Shown here piece after piece: positions 32,000 through 41,671 of a stretch of DNA of 64,000 nt (positions within the stretch are counted from its first letter, which is position 1; each line of letters opens with the position of its first letter). The notes under the pieces are model-generated. The model saw nothing but the letters and a program-made list of their open reading frames with translations, made no database searches and was not told where the DNA came from. A program made the translations under genes and the position numbers. This DNA is from a virus (taxonomy: Duplodnaviria; Caudoviricetes): positions 32,001 through 96,000 of IMG/VR virus record IMGVR_UViG_3300020151_001495, one strand, 5' to 3'.

Positions 32000-32023
32000 A
32001 AAAAAAGGAGGTATTGAACCTCC
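32000..32023 (-). terminator. Intrinsic terminator after hli
   Basis: GGAGGT-TCAAT-ACCTCC-TTTTTT. Confidence 0.75.
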
Positions 32024-36763: not shown

Positions 36764-36976
36764 TTAATATCGTTCAGGAATGTTATCGTAATCTAGTGGG
36801 TGGTCTTGTTTCTTTTCAGACTTACGAAGTTTTTTAAGGTGTTCAAAAAGAAGTTTAATCTCTTTGTATGCATCATTTGCATTCATTCTTCCTGACATTT
36901 CTGCAGCAAGAATATATTCTACCCTTTTACCAAATGCTAAAAGTTGTAATTCAAATTCTGTTTGGTTTTCATACAT
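36764..36976 (-). CDS. Conserved cyanophage hypothetical protein
   Basis: MYE..FE..L..FGKRVEYI.AAEM.G.....DAYKEIK. Confidence 0.7.
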   Translation of the reverse strand: MYENQTEFELQLLAFGKRVEYILAAEMSGRMNANDAYKEIKLLFEHLKKLRKSEKKQDHPLDYDNIPERY

Positions 36977-36995
36977 TGAATTTAATTTCAACTGA

Positions 36996-37069
36996 AGCCC
37001 AAGGTCGGACTTGAACCGACGACCTACGGTTTACAAAACCGTTGCTCTATCCAGCTGAGCTACTCAGGC
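36996..37069 (-). tRNA. tRNA-Thr(TGT)
   Basis: ACGGT-TT-TGT-AA-ACCGT anticodon arm. Confidence 0.95.
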
Positions 37070-37332
37070 ATATCTTCGGGATTCTCCAAGTCTACTGGAA
37101 ATAAACATGGATGGCATTCTTCATCAATTAAATAGAAGGATGTTCTGTATAATTCTTCAGGAGTATATTCAGGATTGTTTGATGCATCTATCTGAATATA
37201 TGGATCCTGTTGCATTATATGAGGAATCTCTTCAAATGTAAAAGGAACATTGTTAATGAAATACATTTCCACAATTTCATTGTTGTAGAAACAATAGTTA
37301 GATGAAATTTTGTATTTCATTATAGTATCCAC
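37060..37332 (-). CDS. Conserved cyanophage hypothetical protein
   Basis: MYFINNVPFTFEE..YLIDEECHPCLFPVDLENPEDMP. Confidence 0.75.
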   Translation of the reverse strand: MDTIMKYKISSNYCFYNNEIVEMYFINNVPFTFEEIPHIMQQDPYIQIDASNNPEYTPEELYRTSFYLIDEECHPCLFPVDLENPEDMPE

Positions 37333-37354
37333 CGATACACATATTTATCGGTAA

Positions 37355-37472
37355 CTCCCCCGATAGGACTTGAACCTATAACCCATCGGTTAAGGAAAAA
37401 ACTGGAATCGAACCAGAACTAAAGGAACCTTCTTTTCCACAGCCGATTGCTCTGCCATTGAGCTACAGGGGA
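37355..37472 (-). tRNA. tRNA-Asn(GTT) interrupted in the anticodon by a 46-nt insert (37438-37393)
   Basis: Intact acceptor (TCCCCTG/CGGGGGA, discriminator G), D-arm, anticodon stem ATCGG/CCGAT and T-arm; loop reads CT-GT[insert]T-AA. Confidence 0.88.
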
Positions 37473-37479
37473 ATAAATA
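37473..37479 (+). promoter_or_regulatory. Late-type promoter for the HNH gene
   Basis: ATAAATA abutting the 5' end of tRNA-Asn on the opposite strand, 30 nt before the HNH ATG. Confidence 0.6.
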
Positions 37480-37509
37480 GTTGGTATTAATTTAAAAAGT
37501 TATACCAAC

Positions 37510-37839
37510 ATGAATAAAAAAGAAACTAGAACTTATGCTGATAGAAAAGCAAAAAATCCTAACTGGGCTAAAAAGATGACAGAAAGAGTATCTGCAACTA
37601 GAAGAAAAAATGTATCTTTAATTAAAGAAGAAGCTGGAGGAAAATGCTGTATGTGTGGATACAACAAATGCACGGCAGCACTAGAGTTTCATCATTTAGA
37701 CCCAGATGCTAAAGAAGGAGGAATTATTGGTTCCACTGCATCTTTAGCAAAGCAAAGAGAAGAAGCAAAAAAATGCATTCTTGTATGTGCAAATTGTCAT
37801 CGTGAAATTCACTCTGACTTATCTATGTATCATAGATAA
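37510..37839 (+). CDS. Free-standing HNH endonuclease
   Basis: CCMCGY..ALEFHH.DP..KCILVCANCHREIH; antisense to the surrounding tRNA operon. Confidence 0.9.
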   Translation: MNKKETRTYADRKAKNPNWAKKMTERVSATRRKNVSLIKEEAGGKCCMCGYNKCTAALEFHHLDPDAKEGGIIGSTASLAKQREEAKKCILVCANCHREIHSDLSMYHR

Positions 37840-37845
37840 AAATTA

Positions 37846-37925
37846 TGGTAGGTGGGGATAACTTTACCTATGTTATCCCTCTTTACTTCTCCAAGCCTTG
37901 GCCTAAAGGGGTATTTGGCACCTAC
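37846..37925 (-). ncRNA. Putative structured RNA with terminal 7-bp stem and 3' ACCA
   Basis: GTAGGTG/CACCTAC closing stem; internal arms CCAAG/CTTGG and GGGATAAC/GTTATCCC. Confidence 0.5.
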
Positions 37926-38056
37926 GATTTTAAGGGCAAGGATGTCCACCTACGATAAAATCTACGATGTGGCCGAGGGGATCCTTTGTTTAATACAACG
38001 TTCCTTGTTGTACCCTTTACTACAGCATTCTGGTTTATCTTTCCAGTGCCACTAGC

Positions 38057-38128
38057 ACCTCTGTCTAGGAATCGAACCCAGTTTCCAAGTGCATTGTCTG
38101 CCTGTCCTTACCAATAGACTACCAGAGG
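38057..38128 (-). ncRNA. tRNA-like RNA with aberrant anticodon arm
   Basis: CCTCTG/CAGAGG acceptor, TAGTCTATTGGTAAGGAC D-arm, CTGGG-TTCGATT-CCTAG T-arm; only GCA-GACAA-TGC where the anticodon arm should be. Confidence 0.7.
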
Positions 38129-38133
38129 ATGAA

Positions 38134-38298
38134 CTAATTTTGTCCCAGAAGATATTCTACTGTAGTTGCAACATCATTCATTGCATCACGAAGATTTGGT
38201 CGTTGACCAGATTCTTGTTTAATAATTGGTCTGGAATTGTCAGTTAGAGTCCACCTCCACTGATTCATATCCTTACAATACCAAAGTTTAATGTTCAT
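38134..38298 (-). CDS. Conserved small cyanophage protein (54 aa)
   Basis: MNIKLWYCKDMNQWRWTLTD..QESGQRPNLRDAMNDVATTVEYL. Confidence 0.75.
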   Translation of the reverse strand: MNIKLWYCKDMNQWRWTLTDNSRPIIKQESGQRPNLRDAMNDVATTVEYLLGQN

Positions 38299-38443
38299 GT
38301 TTGGTTTTTTCTAATTTAATCCAATTAAGAAGAGCATTTACTTCTGCTCTCTTTGCTTCAGTGAAGTCATTACCTTTACTGAAGAGATAAAAATCCAATG
38401 CTTCAATAGCAAGTTTTCTATCTTGTTGAGAAATAAGTGACAT
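38288..38443 (-). CDS. Conserved small cyanophage protein (51 aa)
   Basis: MSLISQQDRKLAIEALDFY..NALLNWIKLE. Confidence 0.7.
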   Translation of the reverse strand: MSLISQQDRKLAIEALDFYLFSKGNDFTEAKRAEVNALLNWIKLEKTKHEH

Positions 38444-38465
38444 AATAACCTCAAAATATGAGGGA

Positions 38466-38536
38466 AGCGAATGACGGGGATCGAACCCGTGACACCAACT
38501 TGGAAGGATGGGATGTTACCGCTACACCACATTCGC
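38466..38536 (-). tRNA. tRNA-Gly(TCC)
   Basis: GCGAATG/CATTCGC acceptor, loop CT-TCC-AA. Confidence 0.95.
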
Positions 38537-38589
38537 AGTGACTCCTCTGTTTGAGCATCGTTGATAGGCTTGAGGAGTATTAATTGTAT

Positions 38590-38823
38590 TTATTTAAATG
38601 TAATTACATCGTCAGAAATACCAGTACCTACATATCCATTATAATATGGATTTTTTAAAGAATAGTCTTTCTGTGCTTCAGAAGCTAATAATCCTTCTAC
38701 CGTACCTAATGCAGATGCAATTTGAGAAAGAGTCCAGATATCTTCATGCATAGCACCTATTTCAAGTGCAGAACGAAGTGTTTCTCTAGCCTTTTCAATT
38801 TGATACTTAACTGAATCTCCCAT
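38590..38823 (-). CDS. Hypothetical protein
   Basis: MGDSVKYQIEKARETLR..SDDVITF; the ORF-track start lies inside tRNA-Ala. Confidence 0.65.
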   Translation of the reverse strand: MGDSVKYQIEKARETLRSALEIGAMHEDIWTLSQIASALGTVEGLLASEAQKDYSLKNPYYNGYVGTGISDDVITFK

Positions 38824-38842
38824 AGTAATAATATAGTGGGGA

Positions 38843-38915
38843 TGGAGAATAGGAGACTCGAACTCCTGACACCCGCCTTGCAAAGGCGATGCTCTACCAA
38901 CTGAGCTAATTCCCC
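38843..38915 (-). tRNA. tRNA-Ala(TGC)
   Basis: GGGGAAT acceptor with G3:U70, loop TT-TGC-AA. Confidence 0.95.
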
Positions 38916-39068
38916 AGATGGATTAGGTGTGTACCCATTCTGGTTACAGGGACCTAACCTCTATCCGTATGTTGACTTTGCAGTTCACATCGAACTAGTT
39001 ATGATACAGCATCTGCCTACTCATAACTAGGGTATTTACCGTCAGAAGGAAAGTTCTGTTAACGGTAA

Positions 39069-39142
39069 TCGGAATGATAGGATTCGAACCTACGGCCACT
39101 CGCTCCCAAAGCGAGTGCTCTACCAAACTGAGCTACATTCCG
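39069..39142 (-). tRNA. tRNA-Pro(TGG)
   Basis: CTCGC-TT-TGG-GA-GCGAG. Confidence 0.95.
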
Positions 39143-39145
39143 AGA

Positions 39146-39217
39146 TGGGAATACTGGGAGTTGAACCCAGACTAAGCCCTTATAAGGAGCCCGCTCTAAC
39201 CATTAAGCTATACTCCC
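39146..39217 (-). tRNA. tRNA-Ile(TAT)
   Basis: GGCTC-CT-TAT-AA-GGGCT; complete cloverleaf. Confidence 0.9.
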
Positions 39218-39226
39218 GAGATTAAA

Positions 39227-39484
39227 TTAACGAACTTCGTAATCTAATCTTCTTATTCGTCTCTTTGGAGTTGTCAATTGTTCCATAGTTTTTGATTGTT
39301 TTTGTTTTGGTTTGGTAAACCCAGTTACCATTTCGACTTGGCTCATGTCCTGTGCTATTATAACAGGTAATCCATTGTTGTCAAGCCTTATGTAAGTTTC
39401 GTTGGGACATTTACAAGATTGTCCCCTGTTTGGAGTTGCTACTTCAAGATTGGAATTGCAACATTTGCATCTGATTTTGTACAT
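39227..39484 (-). CDS. Zinc-ribbon hypothetical protein
   Basis: IRCKCC..SCKCPN..RRLDYEVR. Confidence 0.7.
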   Translation of the reverse strand: MYKIRCKCCNSNLEVATPNRGQSCKCPNETYIRLDNNGLPVIIAQDMSQVEMVTGFTKPKQKQSKTMEQLTTPKRRIRRLDYEVR

Positions 39485-39514
39485 TGTTTCATGCCTTAAT
39501 TTATTCAGTTGTCA

Positions 39515-39588
39515 CGACTCAGGAGGGACTTGAACCCCCGACCAACTGCTTAGAAGGCAGATGCTCTATCCAGCTGAGCTACTGAGTC
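39515..39588 (-). tRNA. tRNA-Arg(TCT)
   Basis: CTGC-CT-TCT-AA-GCAG; GACTCAG/CTGAGTC acceptor. Confidence 0.95.
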
Positions 39589-40039
39589 ATTCATTTGATT
39601 TTAACATGTTTTCGGGGCAGTTGTCAACCCATGGGGCACACAACCTGATTTCCCCGCCAAGTGCTCGACACTCATCAGTATAACACACAGAAGTGTCTAC
39701 TGGTTTTTCTGAGTACCGTGGAGCTGGTATTCTAACATATCCATAGTCTCCTGTCAAGCGTTCATAATCTGAAATTGCTTTATCAACTTCTAATTCCACC
39801 TTAGCATCAAGTTGTTTTTGATGGTCTGGTAAGTCTGGAAGATTTTGTTCCAGACCCAATCTTTGAATTAGTGCTGTGTAAATTTTCCAAAGTTGTTTTT
39901 CATCTAATTTCAATTGTCCAGCAAGACCAGCAATGATAATAGCGATGATAGAAACAACAACGAATCCTTTGATATATTTAGGACTTAATTGTGGAAGAAC
40001 TTTAAACTTACCTTCTTTAATTTCAAAGAGTTTAAACAT
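39587..40039 (-). CDS. Membrane-anchored hypothetical protein with Cys-rich C-terminus
   Basis: Transmembrane segment; CYTDECRALGGEIRLCAPWVDNC. Confidence 0.7.
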   Translation of the reverse strand: MFKLFEIKEGKFKVLPQLSPKYIKGFVVVSIIAIIIAGLAGQLKLDEKQLWKIYTALIQRLGLEQNLPDLPDHQKQLDAKVELEVDKAISDYERLTGDYGYVRIPAPRYSEKPVDTSVCYTDECRALGGEIRLCAPWVDNCPENMLKSNE

Positions 40040-40328
40040 TGTCATCCTCCCAAAAATTTTCCAAAGCTTCATCAACTACATCTTTAGGAGAAACATAGTT
40101 TGATTTATCTCTAAGCTTCTTTGTGTCAAAAGTAAGAGTTGGAGTTATAGACCCATTGGATTCTACTCTTACTTTTGCTCCAAATGGAGTTCCTTTTGGT
40201 TGAATGTTTAATGTATTCGCAGAGTCCAATGATACTTTAATTTTATCATTCTCTGCTTTTAAATATCCTGCTTTGCCAAGAATGTCAACGACATCTTTCT
40301 GATTATCTGGCAATCCATTATTTTTCAT
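40032..40328 (-). CDS. Hypothetical protein
   Basis: ORF track; operon packing. Confidence 0.6.
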   Translation of the reverse strand: MKNNGLPDNQKDVVDILGKAGYLKAENDKIKVSLDSANTLNIQPKGTPFGAKVRVESNGSITPTLTFDTKKLRDKSNYVSPKDVVDEALENFWEDDNV

Positions 40329-40365
40329 GAGGAAGGGGAGAACGAATCTCCCCATTATTTATCTG

Positions 40366-40728
40366 TTAAACTCTAGAGTAACAGATTCTCGCCACTCCCT
40401 GTCCAGGGTGAGCAATAGTAGAGAATGCCCCGTAGGACAGGTCGAGGTCTCGTCCTCCGACATATGGACCTCTATCATTCACTCGCACAATAACTGACTT
40501 ACCATTACTTTGATTTGTAACACGTAACCTAGTACCGAATGGAAGCCACTTATGTGCAACAGATTGACCATATGCATTATATCTTTCACCGTTAGCGGTG
40601 GTTTGGCCGTGATATCCATCACCTACACCATAATGTGATGCCAGGGAACATCCGCTGGCTGCCTCAGCTTTTTGGGGCGTAAATCCAAGAAGTGTTGAAG
40701 CAATTAGAAGAGTTGAAAATAGACGCAT
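40366..40728 (-). CDS. RlpA-like (DPBB) lytic transglycosylase
   Basis: ASHYG..TANGE..AHKWLPFGT..VRVNDRGPY..RDLDLS; signal peptide. Confidence 0.92.
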   Translation of the reverse strand: MRLFSTLLIASTLLGFTPQKAEAASGCSLASHYGVGDGYHGQTTANGERYNAYGQSVAHKWLPFGTRLRVTNQSNGKSVIVRVNDRGPYVGGRDLDLSYGAFSTIAHPGQGVARICYSRV

Positions 40729-40848
40729 TTAAATTAATAGAATTCTACATCCCAATAGAAGGGGGGTACACCCAACCTCTCGGAGGGCACCTTCCTGGGC
40801 ACAAGATGATAACACTCAATCGCTTATGATATAAGTTGGTGTTACCAA

Positions 40849-40919
40849 TAGGTGAAGAAGGAATCGAACCTCCGTAATTCAGTTAATCGCTGACCGCTCT
40901 GCCACTGAGCTATCCACCA
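40849..40919 (-). tRNA. Atypical tRNA with ATT anticodon (Asn-like) and G33
   Basis: 71-nt cloverleaf; loop CG-ATT-AA; U1:U72 and G27:A43 mismatches; has its own early promoter. Confidence 0.65.
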
Positions 40920-40922
40920 GAT

Positions 40923-40952
40923 AATAATACCAGGAATCTGTTCAGTTGTCAA
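40923..40952 (-). promoter_or_regulatory. Early promoter
   Basis: TTGACA-N17-TATTAT. Confidence 0.7.
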
Positions 40953-40978
40953 GGTGCTTGGGATATTTATAAAACTTA

Positions 40979-41671
40979 TCAGGGTTGGAAAACCCTACCC
41001 CATCCATCATTTCCTTTTGGACACCATCTATGTGATAGTTCTGATCTCTTATACACAGCTCCTTTTCCATTAGTTACTGCACCAGTATACCCATCATTTA
41101 AAGAACCATATGGATCATTGACTACATAATCTCCTGCTGGAGTCTTACCAATGACTACAACCATGTGCCCACCACGAGGTGCAGATAAAGGACCCCTATG
41201 TAAGATACCAATAACAACAGGTCTGCCGTTGGATAGTTCACGATCAAGATCAGCAAAAGTAAGACCGTAACTAAAGTGTGACTTAATACCATAGCTTGTA
41301 AGAACTTTGGTTTGAACCATATGATCAGTTGTATCCCCAATTGAAAATACTTTTTGAACATAGGCATCATCGCCCTTAGCTCCTTTTAACGTGCCTGGTT
41401 TAAAATATTCAAGACACATAGCACAACTAGAGCTGTTACAAGTACGGTCAGCATCTCTGTAATTATCGGTTTGTGGAAAAAATGGAACATCTAAAATATT
41501 TGATTTTGGTTTATCTGATTTAGATCTAAAAATTTTAATCCAGTTAGCCTCATCTTGAGTTAACTCCTGAGCCTTGAGAAGTAGATCTTTTTCAAATTGT
41601 TCTACCCCAGCAACATGCTTTGGATTGTTCTCATCGTAATGTTTAAAAAAGTTGTGTAAATCAATCTGCAT
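40979..41671 (-). CDS. C39-like peptidase (putative endolysin)
   Basis: VPFFPQTDN..TCNSSSCAM..GGHMVVVIG..VNDPYG. Confidence 0.85.
   Translation of the reverse strand: MQIDLHNFFKHYDENNPKHVAGVEQFEKDLLLKAQELTQDEANWIKIFRSKSDKPKSNILDVPFFPQTDNYRDADRTCNSSSCAMCLEYFKPGTLKGAKGDDAYVQKVFSIGDTTDHMVQTKVLTSYGIKSHFSYGLTFADLDRELSNGRPVVIGILHRGPLSAPRGGHMVVVIGKTPAGDYVVNDPYGSLNDGYTGAVTNGKGAVYKRSELSHRWCPKGNDGWGRVFQP

Follow-up and report, generated by a model that had tools for sequence, protein, structure and literature searches.

Does an endonuclease gene that abuts an interrupted tRNA gene owe its spread to that interruption, or do two separate elements share one gene as their home? The question is raised by a locus in a 64,000-nt stretch of viral DNA, positions 32,001 to 96,000 of IMG/VR record IMGVR_UViG_3300020151_001495, which we refer to as the window. 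A preliminary description of the locus proposed that a small HNH endonuclease cuts the anticodon DNA of intact tRNA-Asn genes in co-infecting phages, that an insert in the neighboring tRNA-Asn gene gives immunity, and that the two spread together; the insert, it suggested, might also shield the anticodon from host anticodon nucleases before splicing. The record to which the window belongs is a 116-kb, 63% complete viral sequence of the T4-like cyanophage type. Synechococcus myoviruses are the closest cultured relatives of this phage, and most of the window aligns with the complete genome G001 at 80–86% identity. Its ordinary tRNA genes, ten in number and all minus-strand, are accompanied by the wcaG and abiF RNA motifs.

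An HNH gene and an interrupted tRNA-Asn gene lie head-to-head in a phage tRNA cluster

The HNH gene occupies positions 37510–37839 of the plus strand, stop codon included, and encodes 109 amino acids. As the preliminary description had it, the gene runs antisense within a cluster of minus-strand tRNA genes, where it is the sole plus-strand gene, and it stands head-to-head with an interrupted gene for tRNA-Asn(GUU) at 37355–37472 on the minus strand. Its assignment draws on the open reading frame, on matches to PHROG 2255 (E 4e-23) and PHROG 3106 (E 5e-21), both of them HNH families, and on a set of residues that is invariant across 13 homologues (C46, C49, H61, H62, C93, N95, C96, and H97), comprising two CxxC pairs together with H-H, N, and H residues. 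The Pfam HNH model matched the protein weakly, at 16 bits and under its cut-off, and a weak match was also obtained to the En (endonuclease) domain of group II intron proteins. Judged by these putative catalytic residues and zinc ligand pairs, the 109-aa protein belongs to the HNH (ββα-metal) endonuclease superfamily. At 109 residues it is small for a site-specific enzyme, which counts against reading it as a homing nuclease.

Upstream of the gene, a T4-type late-promoter-like box, AATAAATA, lies at 37472–37479 on the plus strand, and the ATAAATA at 37473–37479 does abut nucleotide 1 (base 37472) of the interrupted tRNA, as first reported. Because TATAAATA occurs 8 times in the AT-rich window against 7.4 expected, a single motif of this type is no more than chance would supply, and the assignment draws in addition on conservation of the box in homologues. 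In about 38 of 40 distinct upstream regions of cyanophage-type homologues the box, mostly as TATAAATA, precedes the start codon by 18–37 nt and is followed by a hairpin that extends to that codon. The window equivalent of this hairpin is inverted repeat I5 (37480–37509, plus strand), whose 14-nt arms (37480–37493 and 37496–37509) are 86% complementary and which ends at the HNH ATG. An inverted copy of the tRNA 3′ end at the end of the nuclease gene was looked for between 37250 and 38250 and was not found. The late transcripts of T4 I-TevI and lysozyme start inside an inhibitory hairpin, and translation is thereby limited to late infection; by analogy, it is reasonable to suppose that translation of the HNH gene is under T4-like late-promoter and hairpin control. 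The eight exact TATAAATA boxes of the window are all on the minus strand, which is the predominant direction of transcription.

Read along the minus strand, the interrupted gene consists of a 5′ exon (37439–37472) that ends with CUGU of the anticodon loop, a 46-nt insert (37393–37438) that resembles the top half of a tRNA, with an acceptor-like stem, a T-arm hairpin, and one tail base, and a 3′ exon (37355–37392) that starts with UAA and carries the discriminator G73 expected for Asn. The anticodon loop is thus CUGU, then 46 nt, then UAA. Neither ARAGORN without its intron mode nor Rfam detected the gene; ARAGORN in intron mode found it and labeled it His because the intron is forced to position 37/38. 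We ruled out a tRNA-His with a canonical 37/38 intron on the strength of G73 and of the joined exons, which ARAGORN calls as tRNA-Asn(gtt) after splicing in silico and which equal, base for base, intact tRNA-Asn(GTT) genes on four other viral contigs (L362, L366, L378, and L392). Standard tRNA finders miss interrupted genes such as this one, and phage tRNA repertoires are therefore under-counted. In the complete genome G001, the interrupted gene is the sole tRNA-Asn gene. The window also contains a 71-nt tRNA-like gene at 40849–40919 on the minus strand, whose anticodon loop, CG-ATT-AA, has G at position 33 and the anticodon ATT; G001 lacks this gene.

The HNH unit and the interrupted tRNA moved as one block

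Taking the tRNA-neighboring ORF at 37060–37332 as an anchor, we obtained 20 contigs with the same tRNA cluster order. On this backbone, HNH and insert occur together in four sequences (the window, L412, L414, and L415, which is G001), both are missing from 17, and none is mixed. The 17 HNH-free contigs carry an intact tRNA-Asn at the site. G001 and L413 provide a filled and an empty allele with near-isogenic flanks, 99.3% identical over 298 nt upstream and 98.9% identical over 285 nt downstream. In L413 these flanks enclose nothing but an intact 72-nt tRNA-Asn, which belongs to a different sequence type, and no HNH is present; in G001 they enclose a 488-nt block made up of a 370-nt HNH unit and the 118-nt interrupted tRNA. 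The edges of the block, at 37355–37842 in the window, coincide exactly with the HNH unit and the tRNA. Comparison of the window with G001 gives about 86% identity in the flanks, 97.9% in the HNH unit, and 100% in the interrupted tRNA. Together, the filled and empty alleles and the higher identity of the block than of its flanks show that the block was transferred in one piece and took the place of the entire resident tRNA gene. Presence/absence polymorphism and a block more similar than its surroundings, both observed here, are traits of free-standing homing endonucleases.

The neighboring region at 37846–38128 holds a tRNA-like element without a proper anticodon arm (38057–38128) and after it a structured, roughly 210-nt RNA terminating in CCACCUACCA, both on the minus strand. 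These elements are kept in all backbone relatives, with or without the HNH block, and the block is inserted exactly after the last bases of the structured RNA. Part of the region matches a stretch of phage S-CREM1 annotated as manA RNA next to a tRNA-Asn; Rfam gave no match at 37846–38128.

Across the wider family, the partnership of nuclease and insert is facultative

A search of IMG/VR with the window HNH protein returned 271 relatives, of which we examined the best 80. Within this set, tRNA-Asn(gtt) adjoins the HNH gene in 57 of 57 cyanophage-type loci (55–99% identity), at a spacing of about 10–40 bp from either end of the tRNA. In the 57 loci the tRNA is head-to-head with the HNH gene, upstream of it on its own strand, or directly downstream of it; a fourth layout, head-to-head with an interrupted tRNA, is confined to the clade closest to the window HNH. 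The association recurs in 238 loci gathered for an unrelated purpose (2 Mb, 520 tRNAs), where the HNH family appears in one phage, 8 nt from tRNA-Asn. HNH plus tRNA-Asn is the sole well-conserved block between HNH loci with otherwise different neighbors, as between L030 and L031 (92.8% identity over 404 nt). The adjoining tRNA-Asn genes differ widely in every stem, and apart from universal tRNA elements the anticodon loop is their only constant. Homologues of the window HNH at 53% identity are also present in Lak phages.

Related inserts were sought independently of the HNH gene, with a pattern built from four elements: the start of the loop, a T-loop inside the insert, the end of the loop, and the T-loop of the tRNA itself. 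Earlier patterns had returned mostly chance matches or ordinary tRNA-His, and the stricter pattern requiring the second T-loop proved specific. It identified inserts in tRNA-Asn genes of 13 lineages with different tRNA-Asn backbones. An HNH gene of the same family lies within 500 nt of the insert in four of these, namely the window type, class 2 (L094, L155, L175, and L305), L297, and L335. In a fifth lineage, L340, the interrupted tRNA-Asn is of the subtype with three extra bases, and 160 nt downstream of it lies a different gene (L340:1825-2508), whose 228-aa HNH-plus-HTH product belongs to another subfamily. Eight of the 13 have no HNH within reach, including L309, for which 3 kb of sequence is available on each side. 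Conversely, about 50 homologous HNH genes among the best 80 of the 271 relatives adjoin an intact tRNA-Asn, among them the closest ones outside the clade (79–81% identity), which have the same head-to-head layout. The insert is thus not needed to live with the nuclease. Of the 13 insert lineages, 4 have a same-family HNH next to the tRNA, whereas for intact tRNA-Asn sequences the figure is 1 of 48, an enrichment (p = 0.006, Fisher test) obtained with lineages that lack phylogenetic independence and with some contigs of limited length.

Co-occurrence, which the preliminary description named as one check, is therefore perfect within the backbone, but HNH and insert separate family-wide. Its further claim that the two spread together describes the shared 488-nt block correctly and fails as a general rule, with so many HNH genes beside intact tRNA-Asn and a majority of insert lineages HNH-free.

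The reading that we favor, to which we give about an even chance, is a homing cassette specific for tRNA-Asn that carries a separate mobile mini-intron as a passenger. On this model, 37355–37842 would be one mobile block of two selfish elements, both living on tRNA-Asn genes. The first would be the free-standing HNH unit, composed of the late-promoter box, the hairpin that runs to the start codon, and the 109-aa ORF, from a family that docks near the ends of tRNA-Asn(GUU) genes in cyanomyovirus-like phages. The nuclease would cut HNH-free tRNA-Asn loci of co-infecting phages, and donor-templated repair would then copy the nuclease gene along with the donor's whole tRNA-Asn gene. The second element would be the 46-nt tRNA-shaped mini-intron, a member of a wider family with its own presence/absence polymorphism; since it sits in the nuclease-linked tRNA allele, it would be carried as a passenger by co-conversion. 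The mini-intron may also break up the nuclease target, so that immunity through the insert is possible, and the model does not require it.

A closer partnership, with the HNH cutting intact anticodon-loop DNA and the insert splitting that site so that the donor is immune and the two are co-adapted partners, strikes us as a serious but doubtful possibility. It accords with the perfect co-occurrence within the backbone and with the enrichment of HNH adjacency among insert-bearing genes. The near-isogenic resident allele and the donor exons also have a 16-bp anticodon arm in common, so that within this arm the insert is the sole difference between donor and recipient. Moreover, the tRNA-Asn bodies next to HNH genes vary widely and have the anticodon loop as their only Asn-specific constant, so that specificity for Asn genes would require the nuclease to read that loop. 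Against this partnership stand the roughly 50 homologues beside intact tRNA-Asn in the examined best 80 of 271, the nearest ones outside the clade among them, the insert lineages without a nearby HNH, and the replacement of the whole tRNA gene by the block rather than of the loop alone. If the target were the anticodon loop, the self-immunity of HNH phages with intact tRNA-Asn would be unexplained, which weighs against homing. We consider unlikely the more far-reaching account that the insert follows a third route of tRNA splicing, in which the cell's own RNase P and RNase Z excise it and a phage Rnl1-type ligase reseals the anticodon loop, and at the same time shields the DNA from the HNH, the co-adapted pair spreading through the tRNA-Asn genes of marine and freshwater phages.

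Linkage by chance, whereby two unrelated parasites of one gene were moved in a segment by ordinary phage recombination with no role for the HNH, appears improbable. Each element is alone in most lineages and mosaic exchange is common in these phages, both as expected under chance linkage. However, the block boundaries match the HNH unit and the tRNA exactly, an interrupted tRNA-Asn has an HNH gene beside it in no fewer than four or five separate lineages, among which inserts and HNH subfamilies differ, and the enrichment given above (p = 0.006) points the same way.

The insert is a small tRNA-shaped element that looks functional

The insert folds into a 7-bp acceptor-like stem stacked on a 4–5-bp stem with a canonical T-loop, so that it amounts to the 12-bp top half of a tRNA in which a 12–26-nt bulge replaces the D and anticodon arms. 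This 7 + 5 base-pair register, with its T-loop, is kept in the 13 lineages with compensatory changes. In this register 113 of 130 pairs form across the lineages, against 48–80 when the strands are slid, and at least three pair types are seen in seven of the ten variable pairs. When the insert was removed in silico from 14 insert-bearing genes, ARAGORN called a canonical tRNA-Asn(gtt) in all 14, although their stems differ. We conclude that exons and insert are under selection, because the spliced genes are canonical despite differing stems and the insert fold covaries.

Comparison with empty alleles places the insert at position 34/35 or 35/36, and always at these two equivalent positions. Three tRNA backbones are represented both with and without it (the window type against L362, L333 against L413 and L417, and L309 against L420), giving exact empty alleles in which the short anticodon-loop insert is absent from an otherwise identical tRNA gene. 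No HNH lies beside the insert-free copies. For cultured phages, a blastn search of 50,697 phage records with the interrupted gene yielded exon-level matches to ordinary tRNAs and no insert.

Self-splicing tRNA introns of group I have a ribozyme core of about 200 nt or more. At 46 nt, the insert is far too small for any known self-splicing intron and so cannot self-splice, and a permissive Rfam scan of 36800–41200 (E up to 1) placed no intron or ribozyme family over it; we therefore ruled out a group I intron. The protein-spliced tRNA introns of archaea and eukaryotes have a bulge-helix-bulge at their splice sites, usually at position 37/38. The window insert has no such motif, forming instead a continuous rod with 1 × 1 mismatches and no 3-nt bulges, and its site is not 37/38, which led us to reject this class as well.

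That the tRNA-Asn no longer works, the insert being a repair scar or junk left after nuclease damage, is in our judgment very improbable. A dead gene would be compatible with finding neither a self-splicing ribozyme nor a bulge-helix-bulge motif and with the second, odd Asn-like tRNA at 40849–40919, and phage tRNAs are often dispensable. Selection on exons and insert argues against it: the exons equal the intact allele base for base, those of all 13 lineages still fold as canonical tRNA-Asn with differing sequences, compensatory changes preserve the insert fold, and the insertion site does not vary beyond the two equivalent positions. The interrupted gene is thus probably still a working tRNA gene, and the mini-intron looks functional, judging from its conserved exons, its covarying fold, and the Rnl1 and Pnkp encoded by relatives.

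A possible route of excision and the RNA ligases of related phages

In seven of the 13 lineages, including that of the window, CUGU is joined directly to the mini-helix, and one base (U) separates the mini-helix from UAA. With this geometry, the mini-helix would be released by RNase P cleavage before its G1 and by RNase Z cleavage after base 73, and the resulting halves, CUGU-3′OH and 5′P-UAA, would be a substrate for a T4-type RNA ligase 1. The sealing enzyme would be Rnl1, which close relatives of the window phage encode. The remaining six lineages have a mismatched 1:72 pair and three more bases (mostly GAU) before UAA, and there, owing to the extra bases, cleavage by RNase P and RNase Z would fail to recreate a loop of 7 nt. 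As a general rule this geometry was therefore rejected, since it fits the seven lineages with a 1-nt tail and fails in the six with three extra bases. It is scarcely credible that the HNH protein itself acts on RNA and excises the mini-intron as an endonuclease or cofactor instead of being a DNA homing enzyme: HNH cuts leave 3′-OH and 5′-phosphate ends, which would suit Rnl1, and the gene adjoins interrupted tRNAs in several lineages, but most family members lie beside intact tRNA-Asn that needs no splicing, the protein is absent from most insert lineages, and its gene behaves as a presence/absence insertion.

G001 encodes a P-loop kinase and a PNKP-type phosphatase as separate genes, an Rnl1 (L349:1869-3095) with a C-terminal tRNA domain, and an Rnl2-type ligase; RtcB was not found in this genome. 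The RNA repair genes of G001 map to L349:1869-4411 and L357:4534-5595; the set also has a dCMP-deaminase-like gene, and the Rnl2-type ligase lies elsewhere. Class-2 insert contigs carry Rnl1 as well, at a distance of 6.5 kb from the tRNA. Cultured Synechococcus phages gave an Rnl1 match in two cases only, B3 and B23, and Rnl1 is absent from five control contigs with intact tRNA-Asn, two of them complete genomes. The strong form of the idea that Rnl1 marks the insert was ruled out, because the sibling contigs G013 and G014, on the same backbone, have Rnl1 together with an intact tRNA-Asn and no HNH, and because Rnl1 was not found on the 30%-complete contig of insert lineage L254. Its presence in siblings with an intact tRNA indicates that Rnl1 is a permissive lineage trait and not an insert marker. 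The incomplete record to which the window belongs does not extend to the Rnl1 region.

T4 Pnkp and Rnl1 repair an anticodon-loop nick made in tRNA-Lys by a host defense nuclease. The relatives of the window phage resemble T4 in having an Rnl1 with a tRNA-specific C-terminal domain, a kinase, and a PNKP phosphatase, and in the proposed sealing of an anticodon-loop nick. The two would differ in the origin of the nicks, which here would come from removal of an encoded insert and not from a host nuclease.

Phage B23 has a 110-nt gene annotated as tRNA-Undet (L411:609-718; MN695335.1 220408-220517) with an insert of about 50 nt in the anticodon arm. The insert is of a different kind, without a T-arm, and B23 has no HNH of the window family.

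Comparison with known homing systems and phage tRNA introns

The tRNA cluster of T4 contains SegB, a free-standing homing endonuclease of the GIY-YIG type, which drives the inheritance of the tRNA genes around it and whose recognition site includes a conserved tRNA motif (PMC2330249). Like SegB, the window HNH gene lies free between tRNA genes, is absent from close relatives, and is co-inherited with surrounding tRNA genes. Unlike SegB, it has an HNH fold rather than a GIY-YIG fold, is much smaller, is associated with one tRNA species (Asn), and is linked to an interrupted tRNA.

A second parallel is the psbA gene of S-PM2, where a group I intron without a nuclease of its own and the neighboring free-standing F-CphI engage in collaborative homing (PMC6083498). 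The two systems share a nuclease-less intron beside a free-standing endonuclease, a cyanomyovirus setting, and co-inheritance. The window intron differs in being 46 nt long, in being unable to self-splice, and in lying in a tRNA gene rather than a protein gene, and the window nuclease family differs in standing mostly beside uninterrupted genes.

For the insert itself, the published precedent is the short "enigmatic" tRNA introns of Lak megaphages, which are highly conserved and absent from otherwise identical tRNAs; for one of them the authors predicted that the intron encodes a tRNA of its own (Devoto et al. 2019, PMC6784885). Neither a mechanism nor a link to a nuclease or ligase is offered in that paper. 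Both kinds of element are short and absent from otherwise identical tRNA genes; the Lak introns lie in Thr and Tyr tRNAs of another phage group, whereas the window insert lies in tRNA-Asn.

Homing endonucleases of tRNA clusters and collaborative homing are known, but only with self-splicing introns or with none. The passenger in the window is instead a 46-nt tRNA-shaped insert that is unable to self-splice, yet it resides in tRNA genes under selection. If the insert is removed, viruses that infect bacteria would have an undescribed protein-dependent route of tRNA splicing; our full-text literature searches returned no description of tRNA-shaped introns in tRNA-Asn, of an HNH link, or of such a splicing route. 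The near-isogenic filled and empty alleles are ready substrates for work on the nuclease target, on immunity, and on the splicing pathway.

Interrupted tRNA genes of other specificities also occur near homologues of the window HNH. Two tRNA-Arg genes beside such homologues (L058:2141-2309 and L077:1819-2013) carry inserts of 96 and 120 nt between positions 33 and 34, both of which open with a pseudoknot-like motif (GGUGUGGUUCACCG ... AACCA) and have a T-arm-like hairpin close to the 3′ end. On a 372-kb phage contig (L083:76-520), Gly and Lys tRNAs near an HNH homologue have inserts of 43 and 53 nt, both of which begin with ATGGCTTCTGT and are spanned by Rfam's tRNA model.
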